Assembly: GCA_000934665.2 (NCBI GenBank)
Contig: JYFJ02004281.1
Span: 1-33,352, forward strand
DNA length: 33,352 nucleotides
Origin: Catajapyx aquilonaris
Taxonomy: Eukaryota
Direction: 5' to 3'
Under the pieces are notes generated by a model. The model was not told the DNA's origin and did no database searches. It saw only the letters and a program-made list of their open reading frames with translations. Positions 26,388 to 33,352 of this stretch are shown here, piece after piece. The translations under genes and the position numbers were made by a program. Each line of letters starts with the position of its first letter. The first letter of the stretch is position 1.

Positions 26388-27429
26388 TAGGTGGACTTCA
26401 CAAGTGCAGAAGTGGACTCTGCCGCTTTCTCTTGGTTTTTATCAATATTTTCTTAGCTGTATTTTGAGGAGACATATTTTTGTGGTGTAGTGAGATGAAG
26501 CATTGTGTTGTATTTTTTCTTTAATTGGTGACTCTTAAAAGTCACACTTCTCTCAGCAAATTTGTGCATTACTTAAGTGCAGGCGGTGGCTTTCCCAAGT
26601 TGTGTTGACAGTAGTTCATTTAAAAAATAAATGCACAAGTTAGTGAAATACTGATATACTGGGACGAGACAGCTGTGCATCATAAGGAAAGTTTTCAGTC
26701 ATGGTTTTTAGGTGGTTTTGTATATCATGGTTTTCTTGACTTTCCAGTTTTGAAAGTTGGATGTTTGATATTATTGCTTCCGACTTTGGGGAGTCATGGC
26801 ACCCATGACTGGAATTTATTACTTTTTACATTACGTTCTGTGAATCACGTGTGCTATCCGCAATAGGAATCTTGACTTGAGTGAAACAAGGAAATTGGTG
26901 CTACGATTTAAACTCTATATATCTGATGATATAAAGTATTAACAAGAATCCAGTTGGCGGGTTAGACGCACGTGAAAAGATGCAATAAAGTGATCTGATA
27001 GCACGTGTATGTGTAGCGTGAGAGAGAGAGAGTTGGCAAGTTCACCGGCAGGGGCATGAGAGAAGTGAGACTCCCGCAAAAGTGGCAGGAGGGTGAAGTC
27101 AGAGGGCGCAGCGGTCGGGCCAATTTTAAAAAGGACAAATTGAATTTTTTAGAGCAACCCTGTTTTTTTAGCCATAAAACAGTATTCCGGTTTAAACTAG
27201 GGAGGGCAACCAAGTAGGGATCAATTATCAAAGCAAGGGCATCAATGTGTAGATAAGCGATGCGGCACTAATGTATGTATAATTGAGACACCAGAGGTAA
27301 AGTAAAAGGACTATATGTAGAAGTCAGGTTTGATGGAATAAACCAACTGAGGCCGAGGTGGAAGCAGTAGTCGAAGCCAGAGCCAAAGTTAAGTGGAGAG
27401 AAGGAGTTGTTCGCCTTTGTTTGATCTCC

Positions 27430-27507
27430 CACCCACCTAAGCGCCTTCGGGCAGCTGGGTACCACCAAACCACCCACACCCACCTAAGCGCCTTCGGGCT
27501 GCTAAGG
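27430..27507 (+). promoter_or_regulatory. Twin bulged C(UUCG)G stem-loops in the LTR
   Basis: 23-bp exact direct repeat cacccacctaagcgccttcgggc (27430-27452 / 27477-27499). Each copy folds as agc-gcc[UUCG]ggc-N-gct with a further lower stem. Confidence 0.65.
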
Positions 27508-27518
27508 CACCCCCTCCC

Positions 27519-27899
27519 ATGCCAAAAGGAGAGGCCAACAAGACCAAGCGGGGTTGCCGGGGCGGCCAACAGCCCCGGGCCAAGAAGCAGCAGCAAGACG
27601 CTGACCAGATCGCCGCCGACGCCGCCCACGCTGCCCAGGAAGCCATCGACCGGGAGTACTCTACCCAGGTGGCACTCCGAGCGGTCATCCGAATAGAGGC
27701 CGCCAAGCGGTGGCACCAAGAACTGGCCCGCCAGGCCGCCGCCCAACCACCCAGCTGCAGACCCCTCCCTCCGCCATCACCTTTCCTCCCCGCCAAGCTC
27801 CGCCTGGTCCTTCCCCCTCCTCTCCCCCGCAGACCTTTGATTGAACTCGGCCCAATCCCTGTCCGCTCCCTCACCGCTACCATCCCTTTGTCTAAATAA
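27519..27899 (+). CDS. LTR-internal ORF, 126 aa: basic N-terminus, Ala/Gln/Glu helical middle, Pro-rich tail; function unknown
   Basis: ATG-initiated, protein-like composition. Only ATG between 27336 and the gag start. Stop overlaps AATAAA 27895-27900. Confidence 0.6.
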   Translation: MPKGEANKTKRGCRGGQQPRAKKQQQDADQIAADAAHAAQEAIDREYSTQVALRAVIRIEAAKRWHQELARQAAAQPPSCRPLPPPSPFLPAKLRLVLPPPLPRRPLIELGPIPVRSLTATIPLSK

Positions 27900-28022
27900 A
27901 CCCTTGCCAGAGCCCCTCCAACCCCACCGCGGGTCCGGGGTCCGAACCTCCCTAACCCTCCCCACCTTTACCCCTTCACCCCCCCCACCACCACCACACA
28001 ACGAAGTCACCCCACGTGACAT

Positions 28023-28040
28023 TGGCGCAGCCGGTAGGAT
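28023..28040 (+). promoter_or_regulatory. Primer-binding site, tRNA-Ser
   Basis: tggcgcagccggtaggat is complementary to the 3' end AUCCUACCGGCUGCG-CCA recalled for insect tRNA-Ser. Confidence 0.85.
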
Positions 28041-28073
28041 CGGCAAGGTCACCCAGCAGCAACACCCAAGAAG

Positions 28074-29279
28074 ATGGAGGAGCTGAGAGAACAAATTCGC
28101 AAATTAGAGGAAGAGAAGGAACGAATGGAGGAAGAACGAAGGCAGATGAAAGAGGAAAAGGGGAAACCAGAGTGCGCCATGACCAACATAAGTTTTGCCA
28201 ACGCCATACCAGTGTACGACGGGACCGGAGCCGCCCAAGGCATCACAGACTTCCTGGCCTCTATTGAAACAGCAGCGGAAATCTCGGGATGGACGGACCC
28301 CCAGAAGACACTAATTATGAAGCTGCGAGTCAGTGGAGAGGCACGGGCTTTTATGAACTCCCTACCCAACGCCGCCTCCCTTCCATGGGCAGAAGCGGCA
28401 GAAGCTCTGAAAACAAGATATGATGAGCCAACCACCACCGCGACCCTCATACAGCAGCTGGCGGAGGTCAAACAGAAGGAGGGCGAAACCACCCGCGCGT
28501 TCGCGGCACGGATACGGCAGCTGGGCTCAAGGATTGTGGAGAACACGAGGTCCAGCCACGACAACAACCTCCTAACAGCGCAAATGACGGCGCAGTTCAC
28601 CAGAGGACTGAGGTCCCCTGATGTCCGCAGGTTTGTGTGTTACGCAAACCCTACCACCTTCGACGAGGCCGTGTCGATAACTGCTCTTCAGGAGGCGAAT
28701 GAAGACTCTACACCAAAGAAATCAGTCCGACTGGTGGAGGCGAAATGCACAGAAGAGAGGTTGGAGGAGATGCTTCAACGGATGATGCACTTCATCGATG
28801 CAAGAGAAGGAAAGGGAGAGCCACCGACACAAGAAGCCACGAGGGGACGGAGCCCCGCCTCGCGAGGCTACCAACAGAACGGAAGACGTGACCTCACCCC
28901 TGGGAGACCCTACAGAGATAACAGCAGGGGGAGGAGCCAGTCCCGAGAAAGAGACCAGTCCAAGGGAAGATACAACCCCAACCACAACCCCCAGAGAGGC
29001 CCCGCCCCCAACTATCCCTACCATCCCATACCTAGCTACCAGTACCAAACCCCTTCGCCAAGCTACACCCATTCCAACTTCCCCAACCAACCCAGACAAC
29101 CCCCACCCACGAAGGACCAAACAGGAGAAGCCCAGGGACAACCCTGCCACCTATGCCTCCGCTACGGACACGACCCCAACAACTGCTGGACCCAATCTTC
29201 GCAGTGCTTCCGTTGTGGAGGATGGGGCCACCTCGCAAGGGCATGTCCGGGAAACGGGGCTCGGCCCTCCCAAAACTGA
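28074..29279 (+). CDS. gag: Gag, 401 aa (N-terminal coiled coil, capsid, two CCHC zinc knuckles)
   Basis: QKEGETTRAFAARI (major-homology-like), QFTRGL, CHLCLRYGHDPNNC and CFRCGGWGHLARAC. Confidence 0.95.
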   Translation: MEELREQIRKLEEEKERMEEERRQMKEEKGKPECAMTNISFANAIPVYDGTGAAQGITDFLASIETAAEISGWTDPQKTLIMKLRVSGEARAFMNSLPNAASLPWAEAAEALKTRYDEPTTTATLIQQLAEVKQKEGETTRAFAARIRQLGSRIVENTRSSHDNNLLTAQMTAQFTRGLRSPDVRRFVCYANPTTFDEAVSITALQEANEDSTPKKSVRLVEAKCTEERLEEMLQRMMHFIDAREGKGEPPTQEATRGRSPASRGYQQNGRRDLTPGRPYRDNSRGRSQSRERDQSKGRYNPNHNPQRGPAPNYPYHPIPSYQYQTPSPSYTHSNFPNQPRQPPPTKDQTGEAQGQPCHLCLRYGHDPNNCWTQSSQCFRCGGWGHLARACPGNGARPSQN

Positions 29280-29292
29280 AGAAGGAGGGCCG
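29249..29292 (+). promoter_or_regulatory. -1 programmed ribosomal frameshift signal
   Basis: Slippery heptamer G_GGA_AAC (29249-29255) in the gag frame, 6-nt spacer, 9-bp stem cggccctcc/ggagggccg. pol is in the -1 frame. Confidence 0.85.
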
Positions 29293-32200
29293 TGACGTCA
29301 GGAGAATAGAGGGTGCCCAGGACGGGAGAGGAGCAACCGCGGCGGTCCGGAAGTTAGAAAAACACGCCATATTCATCAACGCCACTATCCAGAACCAGCA
29401 AGCGATTTTTCAGCTCGATACGGGAGCAATGGCCTCCATCATCAACCCAGAGTGGCTACCCCTTCAAACCAGCCCGGCCGAGGACGAAGAAGCTGCCGAA
29501 TTGGTGGGGGTCACAGGCGATGTTCTACCTGTCCAAGGCGTTTACCACTTTGAACTTAACGTCGGTGGGAGGAAGATCCTGCACCCACTCTGGGTCATAG
29601 AGGAAGGGAGCCAAGCCTACGACGGTATCCTCGGGCAGGATTTTATCGCTGCCCAAGGAATTGATATCCTGACCAGCCAATCGGCGATAAACATGGGAGG
29701 GCTAATCATCCCATATGCTCGCAACCACCGCTACCCCAAAACCGCCCCTATCAAATGGATAGACACACGACCCATTCCCGCCCGATCCGAGATAATCACA
29801 ACCGGACTGACGGACAGGAAGTACTGGAACAAGACCATCCTGCTGGAGCCCGTGGGACAGCCGGTGGGCGGATTCGTGGTGGCCCACGCCCTCACGCAAG
29901 TCTCCGGGGACGGTCGGGTCCCTATCAGGATCGTCAATACCACTGAGGAAGACATCCACATACCGGCAAACGCAACTATAGGAAAAGGAAGCTCGTCATA
30001 CGCACTGTACGACACCTCGAAGAACAACGCGGCCCAGCTGGAGCCTGACTGGACCGAACTCAAGATGGGACCCCTCGAGAGCTACCATCAAGACGACCTG
30101 AGGAACCTACTACAGGAATACAAGAACGTGTTCCAGGCAACGGACGGCCCCTTGGGGCAAACATCGACCGTAAAGCACAGGATTGAGACGGGAGAAGCAC
30201 GCCCCATCGCCTGCAGACCTTACCGAATCCCGGAAAGACAGAAAGAAGAAGTAACCGCCTGCATCGATGACATGCTGCGGCATGGGGTAATTGAACCGAC
30301 GTCATCTGCATGGGCGGCGCCAGTCGTCCTAGTCCAGAAGCCCGACGGCAAACTGAGGTTCTGCGTGGATTACCGGAAATTAAACGCGGTCACAAAACGA
30401 GACATCTACCCTCTACCCACCATCCCGGAAACGCTGGACAAGCTGGGAGGGTCCAGATACTTCAGCTCCTTAGACCTCCACACGGGATTCTGGCAAATCG
30501 ATGTGGACAAACGGGACAGAGAGAAAACGGCCTTCATACTACCTAACGGCAGGTACCAATTCACAAGGATGCCGTTCGGCTTAGTTAACTCACCCAGCAC
30601 CTTTCAAAGATTGATGGACGTCACACTCGCCGGACTTAAAGAAGACATTTGTCTAGTGTACCTAGATGACATCATTATTTACTCGGAGTCCTTCCCGGAA
30701 CACCTGAGACGCTTACGGTCAGTCCTCGACAGACTCAAGAAGGCGGGACTAAGGTTAAAACTGTCCAAATGCCATTTCGCCAAGGAACGAGTCAAATACT
30801 TAGGACACATAGTCTCAAGAGACGGAGTCGAACCCGACCCCGCTAAGATCAGCACCATCCAAACCTACCCGGAGCCACGCACCATCAAACAAGTCCGAGC
30901 CTTTTTAGGCCTCGTCGGGTTCTACAGGCGATTTATCCCCAGATTTGCGGATCTGGCGCAACCATTGACCCGGCTGACGAAGAAACCTGCTTACCCAGGA
31001 CAGAAGCTACAGTGGGGAGAAGAACAGACCAAAGCCTTCACCACCCTGAGAAATTCCCTTACTAAATTCCCAGTCCTACGCTGTCCTGACTTCTCAAAAC
31101 CATTTACGCTTTCAACCGACGCATCCGCCTACGCCGTCGGCGCCACGTTGTCACAAAGATTTGAGGATGGAGAGCATCCCCTGGCATACCAGAGCCGGCA
31201 ACTCAGCAAGGCAGAGAGAAACTACTCGACAACGGAAAGAGAATGCCTAGCTGTCGTGTGGGCGATGAGGTCATTCAGATGCTACCTTTACGGCCGACAC
31301 TTCACCGTCATCACAGACCACGCCCCCTTGAGGTGGCTAATGAACCTGAAGGATCCGTCTTCCCGGTTGGCCCGTTGGTCAGTCGCACTCCAAGACTACG
31401 ACTTCGAAGTGATACACCGACCAGGCAGACTCCACTCCAACGTGGACGCCCTGAGCAGGATCGAGGTCAACACCATCCATGAACTAGAAGAGACCTGGGA
31501 TAAGGCCAGACTTAGGAAGGAGCAGGGGGCAGATCCATACTGCCGCCCCATCCTGGAAGACGTGCGGAACGAGCGAAGACGGGACTTCTACACCGCCAAC
31601 GGGATCTTATACACCCAAAAAGGCAGCAGGGAAGTCGTCGTAGTTCCCAGGACCATGACGGAAAAGATTATGGAACTCCATCATGACCCTCCATTCGCAG
31701 GCCACTTGGGGTACCACAAAACCCTGGCAAAAATCCAACAACGATTCACCTGGCCGGGGATGACAAAGGACATCCGACAATACTGTAAGACCTGCACATC
31801 CTGCCAGAAGAGGAAGCAGCCCAGACCTCGAGGGACGGCCCCCCTCCAACCTTACCCAGAAGTACACCTGCCATTCGAGCGCGTATCGATGGACTTCATG
31901 GGACCACTACCAACCTCAGAGGGCGGGAACAAGCACATCCTGGTGCTAACGGACTACCTGACGAGATATCCGGAAGCGTTCGCCTTACCGGACCAGAAGG
32001 CAGAGACGGTGGCCAGGGTGTTGGTCAACGATGTGTTTACACGGCACGGCATCCCGCGCCAGCTGCTCACGGACCAAGGCCGGAACTTCACATCACGCCT
32101 CATGAAGGAGTTATGCAACCTCCTCGGGGTGAAGAAGATACAGACCACGGCGTATCACCCTGCGGCAAACGGGCTAGTGGAAAGGTACAACCGTACGTTG

Positions 32201-33013
32201 GTAGACAGTCTGAGCCACTACGTCAACAAGGACCAGACCAACTGGGACGAAGGAGTACCACTCGTTCTGATGGCGTACCGTAGTGCGGTACAGGAGTCAA
32301 CGAAGGAGACGCCCTTCTTTCTCATGCACGGACGTGACATGACCCTACCGGCGGATGACACCTTCACAGCGCCGCCGGAGCCATACAACGACAACCCTTC
32401 CTACAGGACCACGTTAGCACGCCGCATGCAGTCGGCGTACGAGGTGGTCAAGGAGCGGTTAAAGGAAGCTTTCCAGAATCAGAAGAAACAGCACGACCGG
32501 AAGAGGGAGGAAAAATGCATCGAGGAAGGTGACCTGGTCTTACTCCACACCCCGAATTGCCCACCCCGCCTCGCCCACAAACTCTTCAACCCTTGGGACG
32601 GGCCCTTCCGAGTACTCCAGCAGACCCATCCCTGCAACTACCTGATCCAACACATGAAGACGGGGAAGAGGCACCACGTCCACGTGGACCGCCTCCGACC
32701 ATTTACACCCCGACACCCCTTCCCTATGATGAACGACACGCCCCAAGCAGAGGCGACGCAACCAGAGTCAGTCACGGAGAGGATTATCGAAACAGAGGCC
32801 CCGATCCTGGAGGATATATGGATCATCCCGCCTGCCGTCACCTCTACCGTAGCGACAAGCCCGGAGCGACGTACCCTGGTGACGGAGAGGAGCTACCAGC
32901 CGGTGACCGATCAGCGGCAGTCTGCCAGCCGGACGACGGGGTACCGCGACCAGGACAGGTCACGACCCACACACAGCTACAACCTCCGCAGCCGTGGAAG
33001 CCCGACCGAGTGA
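29249..33013 (+). CDS. pol: Pol polyprotein (protease, RT, RNase H, integrase), expressed as a Gag-Pol fusion
   Basis: LDTGA and GILGQD; LRFCVDYRKLN, MPFGL, YLDD; TDAS, ECLAV, TDH; HHCC zinc finger, MDFMGP, LTDQG, NGLVERYN; WDGPF. Uninterrupted frame (ORF track 29153-33013). Confidence 0.97.
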   Translation, partial: GKRGSALPKLKKEGRDVRRIEGAQDGRGATAAVRKLEKHAIFINATIQNQQAIFQLDTGAMASIINPEWLPLQTSPAEDEEAAELVGVTGDVLPVQGVYHFELNVGGRKILHPLWVIEEGSQAYDGILGQDFIAAQGIDILTSQSAINMGGLIIPYARNHRYPKTAPIKWIDTRPIPARSEIITTGLTDRKYWNKTILLEPVGQPVGGFVVAHALTQVSGDGRVPIRIVNTTEEDIHIPANATIGKGSSSYALYDTSKNNAAQLEPDWTELKMGPLESYHQDDLRNLLQEYKNVFQATDGPLGQTSTVKHRIETGEARPIACRPYRIPERQKEEVTACIDDMLRHGVIEPTSSAWAAPVVLVQKPDGKLRFCVDYRKLNAVTKRDIYPLPTIPETLDKLGGSRYFSSLDLHTGFWQIDVDKRDREKTAFILPNGRYQFTRMPFGLVNSPSTFQRLMDVTLAGLKEDICLVYLDDIIIYSESFPEHLRRLRSVLDRLKKAGLRLKLSKCHFAKERVKYLGHIVSRDGVEPDPAKISTIQTYPEPRTIKQVRAFLGLVGFYRRFIPRFADLAQPLTRLTKKPAYPGQKLQWGEEQTKAFTTLRNSLTKFPVLRCPDFSKPFTLSTDASAYAVGATLSQRFEDGEHPLAYQSRQLSKAERNYSTTERECLAVVWAMRSFRCYLYGRHFTVITDHAPLRWLMNLKDPSSRLARWSVALQDYDFEVIHRPGRLHSNVDALSRIEVNTIHELEETWDKARLRKEQGADPYCRPILEDVRNERRRDFYTANGILYTQKGSREVVVVPRTMTEKIMELHHDPPFAGHLGYHKTLAKIQQRFTWPGMTKDIRQYCKTCTSCQKRKQPRPRGTAPLQPYPEVHLPFERVSMDFMGPLPTSEGGNKHILVLTDYLTRYPEAFALPDQKAETVARVLVNDVFTRHGIPRQLLTDQGRNFTSRLMKELCNLLGVKKIQTTAYHPAANGLVERYNRTLVDSLSHYVNKDQTNWDEGVPLVLMAYRSAVQESTKETPFFLMHGRDMTLPADDTFTAPPEPYNDNPSYRTTLARRMQSAYEVVKERLKEAFQNQKKQHDRKREEKCIEEGDLVLLHTPNCPPRLAHKLFNPWDGPFRVLQQTHPCNYLIQHMKTGKRHHVHVDRLRPFTPRHPFPMMNDTPQAEATQPESVTERIIETEAPILEDIWIIPPAVTSTVATSPERRTLVTERSYQPVTDQRQSASRTTGYRDQDRSRPTHSYNLRSRGSPTE

Positions 33014-33242: not shown

Positions 33243-33255
33243 AAAGAGGGAAGTA
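33243..33255 (+). promoter_or_regulatory. Polypurine tract
   Basis: aaagagggaagta immediately before the 3' LTR TG. Confidence 0.8.
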
Positions 33256-33352
33256 TGTAGCGTGAGAGAGAGAGAGTTGGCAAGTTCACCGGCAGGGGCA
33301 TGAGAGAAGTGAGACTCCCGCAAAAGTGGCAGGAGGGTGAAGTCAGAGGGCG
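33256..33352 (+). repeat. 3' LTR (partial)
   Basis: 97/97 identical to 27012-27108. Confidence 0.97.

Follow-up and report, generated by a model that had tools for sequence, protein, structure and literature searches.

The 33,352-nt contig JYFJ02004281.1 of Catajapyx aquilonaris (GenBank assembly GCA_000934665.2), which in its full length is the window analysed here, ends in an intact, young Ty3/gypsy-type long terminal repeat (LTR) retrotransposon that occupies the last 6.3 kb and carries, in its 5′ LTR and ahead of gag, an open reading frame (ORF) of 126 codons. Comparison of this ORF with a diverged copy yields a substitution pattern of coding type, which gives moderate support to a protein-coding reading. 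The reading we favour, to which we give about an even chance, is that the ORF is a lineage-specific accessory gene of the element, which precedes the primer-binding site (PBS) in the transcribed R-U5 portion of the LTR and is translated from a weak first AUG, with gag reached by leaky scanning. Coordinates of all features are collected in Table 1.

An initial annotation, made from the sequence alone, had drawn attention to the ORF and placed it at 27519..28076. Its start is confirmed; its end is not, as position 28076 belongs to the gag ATG and the ORF closes at 27899. A list of all ATGs confirms that the one at 27519 is the sole ATG between 27336 and the gag ATG (28074), and that seven others lie in the 324 nt of LTR upstream of this zone (27012–27335). 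The zone begins just downstream of two TATA-like motifs, both of which lie ~200 nt upstream of the ORF, and these motifs and two AATAAA hexamers are found where the annotation had put them. The start contexts are also as it described them, with cccATGc for the ORF (C at −3 and +4) and aagATGg for gag (A at −3, G at +4). The gag ATG follows 175 nt after the end of the ORF, and the interval of 552 nt from one start codon to the next is free of AUG. Its position ahead of the PBS-like site puts the ORF inside the LTR, which supports the claim that it is wholly contained there but falls short of proof, as the window covers no more than the initial 97 nt of the 3′ LTR.

The evidence that carries the favoured reading comes from variant copies. 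Four public DNA runs of one sample contain 92–95% of the sampled words of the stretch, with no RNA run among those listed, and variant contigs were drawn from three of these runs, together with one further run covering only 26959–27004. Contigs identical to the window were present beside several variant ones. The main diverged contig (243 nt) spans 27555–27807, where it differs by 22 substitutions (20 of them listed), a divergence of ~9%, and by an in-frame 9-nt deletion at 27619. A second contig, covering 27504–27584, has eight differences (two listed), the first listed one lying at 27534, 31 letters from the contig end; the part from 27504 to 27533, which includes the ATG and its context, is free of listed differences. 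A third variant carries T>C at 27812, 27821 and 27836, 9 and 15 nt apart and all at synonymous third positions. This trio occurs in one run only, two other runs of the same sample having the letters of the window, and probably represents differences between two near-identical LTRs or alleles. The fourth variant, likewise seen in one run only, has within 27890–27899 a T>G change and two deletions, of 2 nt and 1 nt; it alters the last two codons but preserves the TAA stop and the AATAAA despite the net loss of 3 nt. Contig depth over 27543–27807 was about twice that of the gag region (34.2/18, 24.9/12.5 and 34.3/13.8), which fits an LTR position, but such figures are not copy numbers and were not used as evidence.

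Substitution tests were performed on the 25 listed differences in three variant contig groups, which fall on codon positions 1, 2 and 3 in the ratio 6/3/16 (chi-square P = 0.0038). The 13 listed differences of a similarly diverged U3 contig, used as a control, are distributed 3/5/5 (P = 0.74), with no periodicity. In the frame of the ORF, 15 of the 25 differences are synonymous, where 7.3 would be expected from random placement on bases of the same kind with a matched mutation spectrum (P = 0.0014); in four unrelated frames (two sense, two antisense), synonymous differences number two to five. The ratio of non-synonymous to synonymous substitution rates (dN/dS, Nei-Gojobori), calculated between the reference and the ~9%-diverged contig over 27585–27777, is 0.18, with 11.5 synonymous (Sd) and 7.5 non-synonymous (Nd) differences, and a value as low arose in 0.1% of 5000 random placements that kept base type and mutation spectrum (P = 0.001). 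Most of the amino-acid exchanges, namely Q>R, D>N, A>S, T>N, I>L, A>V, C>S and S>P, are conservative, and none of the listed changes creates a new ATG or an in-frame stop. As only two of six C>T changes lie at CpG, the phase pattern cannot be put down to CpG decay at codon borders. When codon usage was scored against the element’s own gag-pol, the ORF frame scored −0.01 and the five other frames −0.34 to −0.84; the corresponding values for pol are +0.21 in frame and about −0.3 off frame.

Several results weigh against a coding function. On the single sequence alone the ORF is not beyond chance: in 5000 dinucleotide shuffles of the stretch (composition 40% C, 14% T), the probability was 0.115 for at most one ATG in 738 nt, 0.071 for an ATG-initiated ORF of at least 126 codons and 0.059 for no ATG in the 552 nt between the start codons, and open frames averaged ~141 codons in the shuffles, so that the observed ones are within chance (P = 0.34). 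The codon-usage score of the ORF lies between coding and non-coding values. The contigs compared come from a single sample and amount to little more than one diverged copy; besides the 25 listed differences there are 18 others that the tests do not include, and the T>C trio, if it separates the two LTRs of one insertion, would be uninformative on selection. The diverged copy itself has a 1-nt deletion at 27745 that breaks the frame after codon 75. By the initial annotation, an ORF interrupted in related active families would refute its reading, and the frameshift of this one copy goes part of the way there. We take the frameshift for damage in a copy that is already dead, since third positions of the reference frame are still favoured among the differences after it (four of six, which is not significant alone). 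The annotation’s claim of a protein-coding ORF is partly supported, by the third-position bias and the low dN/dS in this one comparison.

Database searches with the ORF product also count against the gene. No Pfam family matched at E ≤ 1, none of 89 word-sharing candidates was a homologue, a HMMER search of 1.84 billion representatives gave no match and the Atlas gave no usable match (recognition 1121). Searches for relatives of the ORF confirmed none of six pattern matches in viral contigs, none of 590 in metagenome contigs and none of 386 in genome contigs; parallel searches for relatives of gag confirmed none of 81 in metagenome contigs and none of 40 in genome contigs.

The main rival, which we regard as doubtful but far from negligible, is that the ORF is a chance open frame in a C-rich, T-poor, non-coding R-U5 leader, with an excess at third positions that arose from sampling or from GCC-like triplet periodicity of the DNA. 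Apart from the shuffles, the failure to find homologues, the frameshifted copy and the small number of differences from one sample, this rival can appeal to the antisense ORF of 148 aa (amino acids) that is open on the same DNA. It has to contend with the phase bias, with the result of the dN/dS randomisation, in which base type and mutation spectrum were retained, with the absence of periodicity from the U3 control and with the small share of C>T changes at CpG, which removes CpG decay as a cause.

The antisense ORF provides a separate explanation, in which it is the selected frame, expressed from an antisense LTR promoter, and the sense ORF its mirror image. As the two frames share their third codon positions, both gain from the phase bias, and the antisense frame is itself nominally enriched, with 12 of 25 differences synonymous against 7.4 expected (P = 0.039), which tells to some degree against the sense reading. 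The sense frame nevertheless has more synonymous changes (15), one listed change (27716) is a TGG>TGA nonsense mutation in the antisense frame, and the order of the phases (3>1>2) fits the sense frame. The antisense codon-usage score is −0.60, and antisense ORFs had no Pfam match and no homologue among 573 candidates. We consider selection on the antisense frame highly improbable.

It is also very unlikely, though slightly less so, that the ORF is a captured fragment of a host gene or of a gene of another element, the diverged contig being the source gene or a paralogue and selection having acted outside the LTR. The diverged contig is short, and its genomic setting lies outside it, which leaves room for such an origin. 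However, the variant contigs are linked on either side to the LTR by words they have in common with it, in the manner of bubbles within a single repeat, and no similar protein was found among the 1.84 billion representatives, which we assume to include arthropod proteomes. Moreover, tblastn of both ORF products within the window returned self-matches only and no second copy.

The ORF product has 126 aa, a mass of 13.8 kDa and an isoelectric point (pI) of 10.7. The three-part organisation noted in the initial annotation is real: residues 1–26 are basic (pI 11.1, eight Lys plus Arg), residues 27–75 are free of proline and residues 76–126 are proline-rich (31% Pro, including PPPLPRRP). AlphaFold2, run without an alignment, predicts a single 56-residue helix at residues 20–75, with a predicted local distance difference test (pLDDT) score of 83–93 for the block, low-confidence ends and a mean pLDDT of 69.5. 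No membrane segment was found, the highest Kyte-Doolittle mean over 19 residues being 0.97. On the strength of the Lys/Arg-rich tail, the one long predicted helix, the PxxP-rich tail and the lack of a membrane segment, the product is more likely to be a nuclear or nucleic-acid/protein-binding adaptor than a membrane protein.

Under the favoured reading, transcription would begin a short way past the TATA-like motifs, close to the upstream edge of the ATG-free zone (27336). A minority of scanning ribosomes would initiate at the AUG of the ORF, the first that the genomic RNA offers, and produce the 13.8-kDa basic protein; the remaining ribosomes, meeting no further AUG before gag, would initiate at its well-placed start codon. 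Leaky scanning, as proposed in the initial annotation, fits the weak first AUG, the AUG-free interval and the strong gag AUG, although the scarcity of AUGs in that interval is marginal against shuffled sequence. The layout is that of leaky-scanning bicistronic viral mRNAs, in which a weak first AUG and an AUG-free stretch precede a strong main AUG.

The same arrangement could serve an upstream ORF (uORF) of purely regulatory kind, the alternative that the initial annotation had offered, in which initiation or translation tunes gag-pol output and the peptide has no function. A weak-context AUG 555 nt ahead of the strong gag AUG, with none between them, would suit such a role, and reinitiation across the 175 nt to gag after 126 codons of translation would be poor and so lower gag output. 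A uORF acting by occupancy alone predicts no purifying selection, however, and the concentration of differences at third positions, the dN/dS of ~0.18 (from one pair of copies) and the conservative replacements speak against one whose peptide is irrelevant. Regulatory uORFs are usually shorter than 126 codons, and those in retroviral leaders are a few codons long; the LTR ORF differs from the latter in its length and in its signal of amino-acid selection. We judge this alternative decidedly unlikely.

The second AATAAA, at 27895, may be the poly(A) signal of the family, in which case U5 would have a usual length, ~100 nt, but R would be long, at ~575 nt. Premature use of this signal in a 5′ or solo LTR would yield a short monocistronic message for the ORF protein. 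Should the AATAAA at 27337 be used instead, the ORF would lie in U5, once per genomic RNA. A further proposal, which we put forward tentatively and think unlikely, is that every LTR, including solo LTRs, is a complete small gene, with promoter, 126-codon ORF and stop-fused poly(A) signal, for a nuclear adaptor resembling Rev or small ORF 1 (sORF1) that would act in trans on genomic RNA of the family or on host silencing. If so, the element would keep seeding expressed copies of its accessory gene after the loss of gag-pol. The idea of a self-contained mini-gene was raised in the initial annotation and depends on which of the two AATAAA signals is used.

The closest analogue that we find, by arrangement, is sORF1 of the Drosophila MDG1 group (412, mdg1, Stalker and Blood), which has ~110 aa and lies upstream of gag in the internal leader between 5′ LTR and gag (bioRxiv 10.1101/2025.03.14.642691). 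According to that preprint, sORF1 has a low dN/dS, is detected by mass spectrometry, gives nuclear staining, has no reported membrane segment and is predicted to form a helix-turn-helix; it is accompanied by the membrane protein sORF2, and in 412 a ~1.5-kb sORF1-only transcript ends right after sORF1 at an alternative poly(A) site (bioRxiv 10.1101/2025.03.14.642691). In both cases a small sense ORF of comparable length (~110 and 126 aa) precedes gag in an arthropod Ty3/gypsy element; each ORF has a low dN/dS and, directly after it, a poly(A) signal, here the candidate AATAAA that overlaps the stop codon. They differ in that sORF1 lies in the internal leader and the LTR ORF upstream of the PBS (it ends at 27899, the PBS-like site being at 28024–28041), so that the LTR ORF is present twice per element and once per solo LTR. 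The predicted fold is one long helix (by single-sequence AlphaFold2) rather than a helix-turn-helix, and the present element has no second, sORF2/FAST-like ORF. Given the LTR location, the type of helix and the missing sORF2, we do not file the LTR ORF as a member of the sORF1 family. No element named 412 or mdg1 occurs among the best 120 pol matches, and membership of the MDG1 clade is not established. The LTR ORF does not itself resemble an sORF2/FAST-like fusogen, which has a transmembrane segment, N-terminal myristoylation and a juxtamembrane polybasic patch; its N-terminus reads MPKG, not MG.

Two other systems invite comparison. The sag gene of mouse mammary tumour virus (MMTV) is likewise a complete protein-coding ORF inside an LTR. 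It lies in U3 and encodes a type II membrane glycoprotein, made from mRNAs of the 3′ LTR that are spliced or start at an internal promoter. In contrast, the LTR ORF follows the TATA-like motifs and is thereby placed in R-U5; its product lacks a hydrophobic segment, and it would be the 5′-proximal cistron of the genomic RNA. Additional ORFs (aORFs) of plant elements, such as ORF0 of Retrosat2 from rice, resemble it as family-specific extra ORFs 5′ of gag with no assignable function, and a very long R has been proposed there too: for the Retrosat2 LTR, in which AATAAA occurs several times, R is predicted to extend over 2023 bp (PMC3485330). The plant aORFs are, however, much larger, belong to plant elements and are not placed inside the LTR in the sections of that source available to us.

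The literature searched yielded these three precedents (MMTV sag, plant aORFs and MDG1 sORFs) and no ORF in the R-U5 of an LTR retrotransposon. If real, the present ORF would be an accessory gene upstream of gag that has moved into the LTR, a placement in R-U5, upstream of the PBS, that is not described for LTR retrotransposons in that literature. The stretch that encodes it would at the same time have to accommodate the signals that direct transcription start, strand transfer, polyadenylation and integration; the gene would be duplicated in every element and survive in solo LTRs; and the genomic RNA would offer a simple natural example of a bicistronic, leaky-scanning message in an animal retroelement. 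That accessory genes are important to LTR retrotransposons is a recent finding; in Drosophila 412, for example, small ORFs that precede gag support spread from cell to cell. Were the gene confirmed, annotators could no longer assume that LTRs are non-coding.

The LTRs of the host element are direct repeats bounded by TG...CA; a PBS follows the 5′ LTR, and a polypurine tract precedes the 3′ LTR. A 97-nt direct repeat (27012–27108 and 33256–33352, 100% identical) fixes the start of both LTRs, the window stopping at 33352. The terminus of the 5′ LTR at 28021 reads ...GTGACA, and the PBS-like TGGCGCAGCCGGTAGGAT begins two bases further on; its putative partner is the 3′ end of insect tRNA-Ser. A scan of the window with ARAGORN gave no tRNA gene to match with it.

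Gag matches Pfam Retrotrans_gag (6.4e-06) and also zf-CCHC. In pol, Pfam places gag-asp_proteas at residues 75–165, RVT_1 at 394–554 (8.5e-41), RT_RNaseH at 646–749 (1.2e-41), Integrase_H2C2 at 831–889 and rve at 906–1003 (3.2e-14). This order of protease, reverse transcriptase (RT), RNase H and integrase is the gypsy order and places the element in Ty3/gypsy (Metaviridae). Among 8000 candidates, 3276 proteins matched pol at E ≤ 1e-30; the best 120 listed matches, the named ones coming from pseudoscorpion, tick, spider, crayfish and others, are only 35–58% identical, so the protein collection holds no close relative of this element family. A blastn search of the element against the remaining 27 kb of the window found no other copy.

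Table 1. Positions of the LTR ORF, its candidate signals and the other parts of the element (window coordinates).
Feature	Position	Strand	Description
5′ LTR	27012..28021	+	~1010 nt, TG...CA ends; end placed by the CA and the PBS-like site after it
Imperfect terminal inverted repeat of 5′ LTR			TGTAGCGTG (first bases) / CACGTGACA (end at 28021); from reading of the sequence
TATA-like motifs	27278..27283 (TATAAT), 27312..27317 (TATATG)	+	Candidate core promoter, end of U3; putative function
First AATAAA	27337..27342	+	Candidate alternative poly(A) signal or promoter-proximal part
27-nt motif, two copies	27430..27456, 27477..27503	+	96% identical; each with GCGCC-TTCG-GGC hairpin core
LTR ORF	27519..27899	+	126 codons and TAA (stop 27897–27899)
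Antisense ORF	27437..27883	−	148 aa; third codon positions shared with the + strand ORF
Second AATAAA	27895..27900	+	Overlaps TAA of the ORF; candidate poly(A) signal, R/U5 border ~15–25 nt downstream
PBS TGGCGCAGCCGGTAGGAT, candidate	28024..28041	+	By position and form
gag	28074..29279	+	401 aa, capsid-like domain, CCHC knuckle, strong AUG context; open frame
pol (protease-RT-RNase H-integrase)	29153..33013	+	1286 aa, −1 frame relative to gag, open
Polypurine tract aaagagggaag	33243..33253	+	Precedes start of 3′ LTR at 33256
3′ LTR, first 97 nt	33256..33352	+	Repeat of 27012–27108

Some smaller observations concern the element and its surroundings. Inside the 127-nt overlap of gag and pol, 22 nt before the gag stop and in gag phase, lies a slippery-type heptamer G_GGA_AAC (29249–29255), which is a likely −1 frameshift site for Gag-Pol. 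The segment 28013–28050, comprising the LTR end and the PBS, is exactly common to a contig of another repeat in which both flanks differ and an ATGGAG start follows soon after. By this match a second repeat family has the same candidate primer-binding site as the element, and such sharing is as expected for a conserved LTR end and PBS. The 5′ flank of the insertion (26900–27011) seems repetitive, in that a 46-nt piece (26959–27004) has other flanks in all four runs compared, the further run included, and a short (GA)n run (27019–27032) directly follows the first bases of the LTR.

The leader just upstream of the ORF AUG contains both copies of the 27-nt motif, whose hairpin core is of cUUCGg type and is present in the minimum free energy (MFE) fold. 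The RNA fold of 27400–27560 is no more stable than those of shuffled sequences (z = +0.96), so the reading of a structured leader is unsupported, and no Rfam family matched 26900–28200 at E ≤ 1. The segment 27428–27465 is common to contigs with quite different flanks, from which it appears that other repeats in the genome carry the 27-nt motif.

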